From: a virus
Length of the DNA stretch: 64,000 bases
Strand: one strand, 5' to 3'
Virus record (IMG/VR): IMGVR_UViG_3300050014_001197
Coordinates: 1-64,000 of that record
The notes under the pieces are model-generated. The model saw only the letters and a program-made list of their open reading frames with translations, was not told the origin of the DNA and ran no database searches. The position numbers and the translations under genes were made by a program. Of this stretch, positions 27,897 through 29,069 are shown piece after piece. Positions within the stretch are counted from its first letter, which is position 1. Each line of letters opens with the position of its first letter.

Positions 27897-29069
27897 ATGG
27901 AAGAAAAAGATTCCTCTAAACAAAGGCAGTCTCAACCAGAGCAAGTTGACTCTGCCGAACCCCCTCTCGTCTGCTCGACCCAATCGCAGGTATTCAAAAA
28001 TAAATTCTATCCAAGCGTAACCTCAGAGGAATGGGGCAGCTGGAAATGGCAAATTAAAAATAGCATTATTTCTTATGAAGAGTTGTCCCGAATTTTCGGA
28101 TCATCTGATTATGAAATTTCTGATGATATTAATTTGCCTCTTAGAATTACTCCTTATTACGCAAGTACTATCAAAGACCCAAAAGGTCCTATTGGTCGCT
28201 GTGTAATTCCTTCTCATGAAGAACTTACTGTTACTGAAAATGAAGAGTCAGATTCTCTTCATGAAGAACAATATAGTCCTTTGCCGAATCTTGTCCATAG
28301 ATATCCGGACAGAGTTCTGTTTTTAACTACGGATTTTTGTTCATCTTATTGTCGATATTGTACTCGATCTCATATGGTATCTCGTCAAAGTGATATTAAT
28401 AAAAAAATGTGGGATAAAGGAATAGAATATATTCGTCAGCATACAGAAGTTCGGGATGTTCTTCTTTCTGGAGGTGATCCTCTAACAATGAGTGACGAAT
28501 CTATTGAGTATCTATTGAAAAATATTAGGGCTATTGAGCATGTTGAATTCTTACGTATTGGAACTAAGATTCCGGTTGTTTGTCCTCAAAGAATTACACC
28601 TGAATTATGTTCAATGTTAAAGAAATATCATCCTCTTTTTATGAGTATTCATTTTTCACATCCAGATGAATTAACTCCTGAGGTAAAACAAGCTTGCGAA
28701 AGACTTGCTGATGCAGGTATTCCTCTTGGTTCTCAGACAGTTCTTCTTAAGGGAGTTAATGACGAAGTTGAAACTATGACTAAACTGATGCATGGATTAC
28801 TCAAAATAAGGGTTCGTCCATATTACATATACGCATGTGACCTCGTACCAGGAACAAGCCATTTTAGAACTACTGTTAATAAAGGTATTCAAATTATTGC
28901 TGGATTACGTGGATGGACTACTGGCTATGCTGTTCCCCAATTCGTTGTAGATGCTCCTGGAGGAGGTGGAAAGATTCCATTACTTCCAGAATATTTTATA
29001 AAACAAGAGGGAAAAGAGATTCATTTAAGAAATTATGAAGGGAAAGAATTTATCTACACCGAAAATTAG
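27897..29069 (+). CDS. lysine 2,3-aminomutase family radical SAM enzyme (KamA/EpmB-like)
   Basis: CSSYCRYCTRS (CxxxCxxC) plus the downstream GGDPL and LRIGTK motifs. Confidence 0.7.
   Translation: MEEKDSSKQRQSQPEQVDSAEPPLVCSTQSQVFKNKFYPSVTSEEWGSWKWQIKNSIISYEELSRIFGSSDYEISDDINLPLRITPYYASTIKDPKGPIGRCVIPSHEELTVTENEESDSLHEEQYSPLPNLVHRYPDRVLFLTTDFCSSYCRYCTRSHMVSRQSDINKKMWDKGIEYIRQHTEVRDVLLSGGDPLTMSDESIEYLLKNIRAIEHVEFLRIGTKIPVVCPQRITPELCSMLKKYHPLFMSIHFSHPDELTPEVKQACERLADAGIPLGSQTVLLKGVNDEVETMTKLMHGLLKIRVRPYYIYACDLVPGTSHFRTTVNKGIQIIAGLRGWTTGYAVPQFVVDAPGGGGKIPLLPEYFIKQEGKEIHLRNYEGKEFIYTEN

Follow-up and report, generated by a model that had tools for sequence, protein, structure and literature searches.

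A predicted KamA-type lysine 2,3-aminomutase of a phage and the solo capture of its gene family by large phages

Introduction

Why do a diverse, phage-only clade of proteins and, separately, other lineages of large phages keep only the first enzyme of a bacterial gene cassette, a lysine 2,3-aminomutase (LAM) of the KamA family? This is the central question raised by a 64,000-nucleotide (nt) stretch of virus DNA (positions 1 to 64,000 of the IMG/VR record IMGVR_UViG_3300050014_001197), which was analysed here at its full length and is henceforth called the window. It may come from a very large phage, with a genome of maybe several hundred kb. The open reading frame (ORF) in question lies at 27897-29069 on the + strand, starts with ATG and encodes 390 amino acids (aa). 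Judged by its sequence and modelled structure, it is a real gene for a predicted KamA-family LAM of the classical KamA type and not of the EpmB type. The enzyme as such is well characterised; that large phages have repeatedly taken up its gene alone has not been described.

The predicted enzyme and its active site

The first-pass annotation had assigned the ORF, with exact coordinates, to the KamA/EpmB family of radical S-adenosylmethionine (SAM) enzymes by way of a CSSYCRYCTR motif (aa 148-157, nt 28338-28367) and further motifs downstream of it, and this placement is borne out by profile, sequence and structure comparisons. The protein contains the Pfam domains Radical_SAM and LAM_C, passes the NCBIfam KamA family model TIGR00238 (347.6 bits against a cut-off of 199.2) and has a single PDB sequence match in phmmer searches, the LAM of Clostridium subterminale (2A5H; E = 3.9e-122), to which it is 52.6% identical over 352 aligned positions. 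The same structure is the top Foldseek match (E = 2.4e-42; template modelling (TM) scores 0.81/0.78) of an AlphaFold2 (AF2) model with a predicted local distance difference test (pLDDT) score of 86.4, the next matches being radical SAM enzymes with E of ~1e-06 to 3e-06. Among the NCBIfam subfamily models, the AblA-type LAM scores highest (TIGR03820, 447.9 bits), followed by the glutamate (394.6), arginine (372.3) and EpmB (TIGR03821, 248.2) models, with all the equivalog cut-offs being missed (525.4, 650, 600 and 369.3, respectively). The Bacteroidales relatives described below likewise fall under the TIGR03820 cut-off (456-466 bits), and the score profile of the window protein tracks theirs.

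The window protein is identical to 2A5H at the three cluster cysteines, T133/R134, SGGD, Q258, Y290, D293, D330 and the GGGG-K337 loop (2A5H numbering). Its C148, C152 and C155 correspond to C125, C129 and C132 of that structure and are invariant in 30 aligned sequences. A radical SAM subfamily devoid of the pyridoxal 5'-phosphate (PLP)-binding lysine had been named in the first-pass annotation as the finding that would speak against its assignment; K359 aligns with K337 of 2A5H, and both substrate aspartates are present in addition. A pair of aspartates holds the substrate in every lysine 2,3-aminomutase, their place being taken by Lys/Asn in glutamate 2,3-aminomutases (PMC3965090). The features of the gene are as follows.

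27897-29069, + strand: KamA-family LAM gene of radical SAM/PLP type (ORF, Pfam, NCBIfam, 2A5H match, AF2, Foldseek, dN/dS)
27897-28004, + strand: N-terminal extension of aa 1-36, with no counterpart in the Clostridium enzyme (the 2A5H alignment begins at residue 37)
28338-28367, + strand: CSSYCRYCTR, with the CxxxCxxC [4Fe-4S]/SAM motif C148/C152/C155 followed by T156 and R157 (residue table; invariant in the alignment); R157 equals R134 of 2A5H, the contact of the substrate carboxylate
28467-28478, + strand: SGGD, aa 191-194, S169-D172 of 2A5H (invariant in 30/30 aligned sequences and identical to 2A5H), the SAM-binding region of radical SAM enzymes
28764-28766, + strand: E290, which replaces C268 of 2A5H (alignment to 2A5H), a zinc ligand there
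28839-28841, + strand: D315, equivalent to D293 of 2A5H and first of the pair of aspartates predicted to bind the side-chain amine of lysine (residue table)
28950-28973, + strand: DAPGGGGK, aa 352-359, with D352 (D330), the glycine-rich loop and K359 (K337), the PLP-binding lysine (D352, G358 and K359 invariant in the alignment)
29067-29072, + strand: tandem stop TAG TAG at the end of the gene (sequence)

Both ends of the protein set it apart from the Clostridium enzyme. At the C-terminus, it stops one residue past the position aligned to 367 of the 416-residue 2A5H chain, so that the last ~48 residues are missing along with C268. The cellular sister proteins likewise stop near position 359 of the AblA model, which has 417 positions; the short C-terminus is therefore not a phage truncation. 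At the N-terminus, an extension of ~36 aa in the phage copies, against ~66 aa in the cellular relatives, contains a conserved acidic E-P-P motif (aa 21-23, nt 27957-27965), the first 20 residues being predicted as disordered (pLDDT < 50). The sole Pro-Pro of the homologs is this [E/D/K]PP, which occurs within the first 90 aa in 102 of 120 of them, phage and cellular alike; placed in a variable, disordered N-terminus, it may serve as a short motif for interactions or act as a diproline at which translation pauses.

In the window protein and its subclade, the PLP loop has its canonical form, DAPGGGGK. Altered loops, which either lack two glycines or have a rewritten sequence but retain Asp and Lys, are seen in several other phage KamA proteins: DTPGGK in P0023, P0030, P0046 and P0067, DSHLGK in P0050 and P0091, DSEYGK in P0104 and DTESGK in LR756501. 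This variation may point to altered cofactor binding or a new function.

A selected, long-resident phage gene

Comparison with a 90%-identical relative on contig L002 gave a dN/dS of 0.09 at a dS of 0.70; the KamA gene is thus kept under purifying selection. Its GC content at third codon positions (GC3) is 0.22, which lies in the range of the remaining window ORFs (0.20 +/- 0.05) and is lower than in the Bacteroidales copies (0.32-0.34); this indicates an old, ameliorated acquisition and not a chimera. An identical protein with the same neighbours is encoded in the independent assembly L001, and the local gene order is retained in the close relatives L002 and L095. The JGI automatic annotation also names the identical protein lysine 2,3-aminomutase. 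The gene does lie among small unannotated ORFs with no partner genes nearby, as a non-functional passenger or a piece of bacterial DNA joined in assembly might. However, the selection and synteny data effectively refute such an origin, to which the intact catalytic residues, the phage-like composition and the existence of a diverse phage-only clade are also opposed.

Relatives in phages and bacteria

Protein searches returned first a set of ~389-aa proteins at 60-92% identity, some of them encoded on contigs of 156-405 kb, and in the next tier ~411-443 aa 'KamA family' proteins from metagenome-assembled genomes (MAGs) of Bacteroidales and other Bacteroidota at ~60-63% identity. The contexts of the 389-aa proteins are phage-like, with genes for a T4 Gp23-like protein, alpha-glucosyltransferase (AGT), GIY-YIG and HNH proteins and thymidylate synthase. 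In bootstrapped neighbour-joining trees with a single EpmB outgroup, the 389-aa phage proteins form one clade with 99% support, within which the subclade of the window protein has 91%, the cellular sister group being left without resolution. A scan of species-representative genomes found the nearest cellular copies to be overwhelmingly from Bacteroidales and other Bacteroidota (56-63% identity).

Viral copies also fall outside the 389-aa clade, namely those of LR756500, LR756501, some IMG/VR contigs and a pair made up of Pseudomonas and Vibrio phages; large phages have therefore gained KamA-type genes more than once. The homologs of the Vibrio phages vB_VcorM_GR11A and GR7B (annotated there as 'lysine 2,3-aminomutase'), of nine Pseudomonas putida phages (vB_PpuM) and of the huge phages LR756500 and LR756501 belong to phages of 195-735 kb and, like the window protein, conserve the Fe-S motif, the PLP lysine and the Asp pair. 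They differ in their lower identity (34-54%), their position outside the 99% clade and their other gene neighbourhoods, as befits separate acquisitions. As the P. putida and Vibrio coralliilyticus phages are in culture, the role of the enzyme is open to experiment.

In the Vibrio and Pseudomonas phages, the homologs stand in a block just upstream of topoisomerase II, shared by L007 (Vibrio phage GR11A, 1468-8081) and L008 (Pseudomonas phage Lauda, 803-7753) and composed of hypothetical proteins of 686/694 aa and 365/387 aa, KamA and a 143/161-aa protein. Two QueC genes lie near the GR11A block, and a GNAT gene directly follows KamA there; this GNAT excepted, the conserved but unannotated genes that flank KamA in the Vibrio and Pseudomonas phages have no Pfam, PHROG or PDB match.

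The first-pass annotation had called the gene unusual in a phage. This holds as regards the record: PHROGs v4 has no KamA family, our literature searches turned up no account of a lysine 2,3-aminomutase encoded by a phage (only kamA as a Bacillus prophage attachment site and unrelated aminomutases), and there is no mention of the enzyme in the huge-phage paper with which LR756500-LR756504 were released. It does not hold as regards occurrence, with homologs in 14 true phage records in addition to the large metagenomic phage clade. A further set of records filed as phage, CAKLQF02/CAKLQH02 ('Acinetobacter phage MD-2021a'), AFYI01, AGRM01 and OR845382, look like bacterial chromosomal contigs, in which kamA/epmB is accompanied by efp, yjeA, ddlB and aminoacyl-tRNA synthetase genes, and are best left out of any tally of phage occurrences.

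The bacterial cassette and its first gene

The cellular gene heads a cassette of the order KamA, ATP-grasp, ATP-grasp, GNAT (161 aa); in L003 and L004, the two loci from Bacteroidales that were inspected, an AsnC regulator comes next. When partners were counted on the same strand and within 3 kb downstream, an ATP-grasp gene was found in 63 and a GNAT gene in 60 of the 68 cellular loci with enough downstream sequence. Neither partner was found in any of 18 viral loci (a set that includes the window, with L001 duplicating part of it). As none of the viral loci has these partners and the window gene has no neighbour conserved outside its closest relatives, the phages captured the first enzyme alone. 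The window protein resembles the cassette KamA in its 56-63% identity, short C-terminus, N-terminal EPP segment and NCBIfam score profile; it differs in the shorter N-terminal extension noted above, and the three partner genes are in no viral locus.

Both cassette ligases are distant relatives of D-Ala-D-Ala ligase (Ddl-like), and a tblastn search with the cassette ligase found no Ddl-like ligase in any KamA-carrying phage genome of the phage collection. The cassette GNAT has no match to the AblB model. From the Ddl-like nature of the ligases, the sequence suggests that the product is a small beta-lysine-containing, possibly acetylated, peptide; we found no paper describing a KamA/ligase/GNAT cassette. 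The loci with the cassette (L003:10001-14602, L004:10001-14566 and 61 further ones among L015-L094) are mostly from Bacteroidales, and KamA relatives also occur in MAGs of KSB1, Marinimicrobia, Spirochaetes, Planctomycetes and Deltaproteobacteria.

The question of EF-P beta-lysylation

The first-pass annotation had favoured a role in the modification of elongation factor P (EF-P), in which the enzyme would supply beta-lysine for EpmA-type lysylation of the EF-P of host or phage as part of a translation-support set. The window does encode bL12 and deformylase, as had been noted, with two of the three PTH2 genes given there confirmed, together with Thg1 and 16 tRNA genes, and the window protein may share with YjeK/EpmB the lack of a C-terminal multimerisation tail (PMC2821294). 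Both belong to the KamA superfamily (30.6% identity). However, the window protein fails the EpmB model (248.2 against 369.3), with scores that are the reverse of those of E. coli EpmB (533.9 on the EpmB and 220 on the AblA model, against 248.2 and 447.9). It also has the LAM state at T133, Y290, D330 and the GGGG loop (2A5H numbering), where E. coli EpmB, the single EpmB sequence compared, differs. Its C-terminus is ~21 residues longer than that of E. coli EpmB, though the last ~48 of 2A5H are missing; this form is common to the cellular proteins of the ligase/GNAT cassette, which do not adjoin efp.

The genomic evidence is of the same kind. Wherever yjeK occurs, yjeA is present too; yjeK is mostly found in a cluster with efp, never in one with ablB, and its enzyme makes (R)-beta-lysine, as opposed to the (S) form of classical LAMs (PMC2821294). 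No match to EpmA or EF-P was found with phmmer in the window or the 18 viral loci, and tblastn with the E. coli proteins detected neither in LR756500, LR756501, LR756503, the nine P. putida phages or the two Vibrio phages. When EpmA, EF-P and the cassette ligase were sought as partners in KamA-carrying phage genomes, the only matches lay in the bacterial-type contigs filed as phage. The EF-Ps of Bacteroidetes, the probable host phylum (see below), are of the PGKGP type in lineages reportedly without modification enzymes, and P. putida, host of nine of the phages with KamA homologs, uses EarP rhamnosylation of EF-P (bioRxiv 10.1101/2023.09.18.558224). We therefore regard a part in EF-P maintenance as highly unlikely; whichever of the uses weighed below proves right, it can be set aside. 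The other suggestion of the first-pass annotation, a small molecule or a modification based on beta-lysine, stays in play among those uses.

Proposed role and its alternatives

In the mechanism that we propose, the [4Fe-4S] cluster held by C148, C152 and C155 would cleave SAM to a 5'-deoxyadenosyl radical, and free L-lysine would form an aldimine with PLP, which K359 holds, while D315 and D352 would bind the side-chain amine of the substrate and R157 its carboxylate; the amino group would then move from C2 to C3, giving beta-lysine. We consider such an enzyme activity to be highly probable, and free lysine to be its probable substrate. A phage lineage would have captured the gene alone from a bacterial, most likely Bacteroidota, KamA/two Ddl-like ligase/GNAT cassette, and it would be expressed within a co-directional, tightly packed block of early-type small genes. 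It would then act as a stand-alone auxiliary metabolic gene raising beta-lysine in the infected cell, with the host's own ligase/GNAT cassette as the sink, so that the phage would drive a host pathway at its first committed step. That cassette is the likeliest sink because the gene came from there, and we propose this part of the reading tentatively and with some doubt. Taken as a whole, a solo-captured, working KamA feeding a host beta-lysine pathway is the best explanation that we can offer, with about an even chance of being correct.

Several points weigh against it. No beta-lysine consumer was found, be it in the window or up to 10 kb away in the viral loci, the window being 64 kb of a genome of maybe several hundred kb. 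That the host possesses the cassette is a presumption that may fail, and the cassette product is itself a suggestion from sequence. As no equivalog-level model is passed (447.9 against 525.4 for the AblA type), the predicted substrate is without formal assignment, and the C-terminal Zn/multimerisation element of the characterised LAM is absent from the predicted protein (E290 for C268, and the missing ~48-residue tail). The divergent half of the phage clade, moreover, has KamA in a neighbourhood of the DNA-modification type, hinting at a different use. If the phage enzyme does feed a host pathway, that pathway would be marked as important during infection, which would be a reason to characterise it; if the phage itself uses beta-lysine, this would be a new kind of phage-specific metabolite.

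Such a use by the phage could take the form of DNA hypermodification with beta-lysine or a lysine-derived group, of virion or protein modification, or of a cationic counter-ion for the packaged DNA of a very large genome. It would explain why phages of three host groups (Bacteroidota, Pseudomonas and Vibrio) independently gained KamA without partner genes. It would also explain the setting of the gene in five divergent members of the clade, where KamA stands between SET-domain and C5 DNA-methylase-like genes, near those for a T4-type DNA alpha-glucosyltransferase, a GT25 protein, sugar epimerases and a thymidylate-synthase-like protein, and the remodelled PLP loops (DTPGGK, DSHLGK) of some of these copies. 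The two QueC genes near the GR11A homolog are in keeping with it. In these five loci (L005, L011, L012, L013 and L014, ~10 kb on each side), the order is Gp23-like, AGT, GT25, then after an interval SET, small ORFs and KamA, followed after another by C5 DNA-methylase-like, thymidylate kinase-like, one or two sugar epimerases and thymidylate-synthase-like; the block could be a DNA-modification island or just reflect the collinearity of related genomes. The subclade of the window protein has none of these neighbours, however, and the protein keeps every contact to free lysine. A search for a KamA-like precedent in DNA hypermodification came to nothing, as the single radical SAM enzyme known from DNA hypermodification, the isomerase M6 gp53 of thymidine hypermodification, is like spore-photoproduct lyase and not KamA (PMC8989533). 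We regard a phage-specific use as unlikely.

The enzyme might alternatively serve another branch of host metabolism, either the synthesis of an N-acetyl-beta-lysine-type compatible solute (AblA/AblB) or lysine fermentation for energy and ammonia. AblA-type LAM is the best-scoring NCBIfam model (448 against the equivalog cut-off of 525), ablA classically clusters with ablB (PMC2821294), a GNAT gene directly follows the KamA homolog of GR11A, and KamA catalyses the opening reaction when lysine is fermented to butyrate (PMC12918008). Yet no AblB-like GNAT stands beside the window gene: none is on record for window 18.8-32.7 kb or the other ORFs scanned, and phmmer with two GNAT queries was negative in the window and the viral loci. 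Nor is the phage KamA part of a fermentation operon, with no Pfam domains of the fermentation genes (KamDE, Kdd, Kce, Kal) in the scanned window ORFs or in the flanks of the viral and nearest cellular loci. The cellular relatives adjoin ATP-grasp ligases and not fermentation genes, and their GNAT, as noted, has no AblB match; we accordingly give either pathway little probability. That the enzyme acts on arginine, another basic amino acid or peptide-bound lysine is quite improbable. In favour of it, no equivalog cut-off is reached, the glutamate and arginine scores are not far below that of the AblA model, and the whole subfamily has the conserved extra N-terminal segment and lacks the Zn tail. 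These scores are, however, far under their own cut-offs (650 and 600), and the protein has both of the lysine-defining aspartates and not the Lys/Asn of glutamate enzymes. Its 52.6% identity to a biochemically characterised LAM, 2A5H, points the same way. The two also have in common the fold (TM 0.81) and CxxxCxxC, SGGD, Q258, Y290, D293, D330 and GGGG-K337, and are set apart by the 36-aa EPP extension, the missing ~48 residues and the lack of C268. Against these alternatives, we retain the feeding of a host beta-lysine pathway as the preferred reading.

Genomic setting of the gene

The first-pass annotation described the gene as embedded in an array of ORFs sharing an NFERG motif, and this is confirmed: the + strand has nine exact matches, where shuffled sequences would give 0.02, and a looser form of the motif is matched 13 times at 23.6-32.0 kb, on both sides of the KamA gene. 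The array consists of paralogous small ORFs at window 23546-32472 plus 47389-48174, with the N-terminal motif (M)NFERGxDPKxxxxIG; an outlier lies at 47392 and a short out-of-frame fragment at 27354. The KamA gene is 55 and 23 bp away from its same-strand neighbour ORFs. The nearest members are listed here for context only.

26666-26992, + strand: small ORF upstream of KamA with an N-terminal NFERG-type motif, first of three tightly packed ones
26989-27354, + strand: second such upstream ORF
27383-27841, + strand: third such upstream ORF
29093-29497, + strand: first of four NFERG-motif ORFs downstream of KamA
29494-29931, + strand: second downstream NFERG-motif ORF
29931-30689, + strand: third downstream NFERG-motif ORF
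30679-32472, + strand: fourth downstream NFERG-motif ORF (597 aa), with four copies of the motif

None of the array ORFs has a Pfam match, and only 29494-29931 matches a PHROG, of function unknown. The neighbours of the window KamA have homologs only in its closest relatives, with none conserved further, and so give no sign of being linked to KamA in function; the idea of a small conserved ORF that moves with the gene as its partner was thereby rejected. The first terminator-like hairpin 3' of the block is at 32848-32875. Scans for sigma-70 promoters and terminators around KamA told little otherwise, with 55 promoter-like sites where 46 +/- 7.5 would be expected.

The window encodes a CUA-anticodon tRNA at 3442-3517 (amber suppressor; tRNA-Pyl according to ARAGORN), and because of it we considered a C-terminal extension of KamA by read-through of TAG; this was rejected, the downstream frame having neither LAM-like sequence nor a Cys triad. 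TAG serves as the stop of 4 of 77 window ORFs. Window-wide, the gain in coding by read-through is no greater for TAG than for TGA, so that there is no clear recoding in the window.

The window, its likely host and other genes

The window has the marks of a phage, including a T4-type prohead protease (Peptidase_S77), T4 gp30.3, five GIY-YIG genes and the 16 tRNA genes, with nearly all coding on one strand and a GC content of ~32%. The host is probably a member of Bacteroidota, for the following reasons: Shine-Dalgarno motifs (3 of 57) are no more common than at random positions; TonB_C, DUF4402 and a sub-threshold SprB repeat are encoded in the window; the relative L002 encodes a full TonB-dependent receptor (Plug and beta-barrel, 649 aa; L002:3139-5088) ~5 kb upstream of its KamA; and the nearest cellular KamA relatives are from Bacteroidales.

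The tRNA genes fall in three clusters (32890-34195, 38293-39321 and 44881-46557), with GIY-YIG homing-endonuclease-like ORFs between tRNA genes at 33253-33882, 45058-45834 and 46597-47247. Thg1, a tRNA-His guanylyltransferase, is encoded at 51775-52518, a few kb from the tRNA-His gene at 45838-45923. A second radical SAM ORF (15740-16663, 307 aa; Pfam Radical_SAM, 33 bits) is matched by no NCBIfam subfamily model, no PHROG and no PDB sequence. A set of NAD salvage genes comprises NAD synthase, an isochorismatase-family (nicotinamidase-like) protein and NAPRTase (11571-12506, 13069-13704 and 18188-19372), of which NAPRTase is also found in L002, together with an AAA_28 protein. Finally, a group of genes atypical of phages (32-1759, 1872-2354, 4292-6019 and 6353-7621) codes for a major-vault-protein shoulder/SPFH-domain protein, a TonB C-terminal domain protein, a TROVE (Ro60-like) protein and a Laminin_G_3 protein with the sub-threshold SprB repeat.

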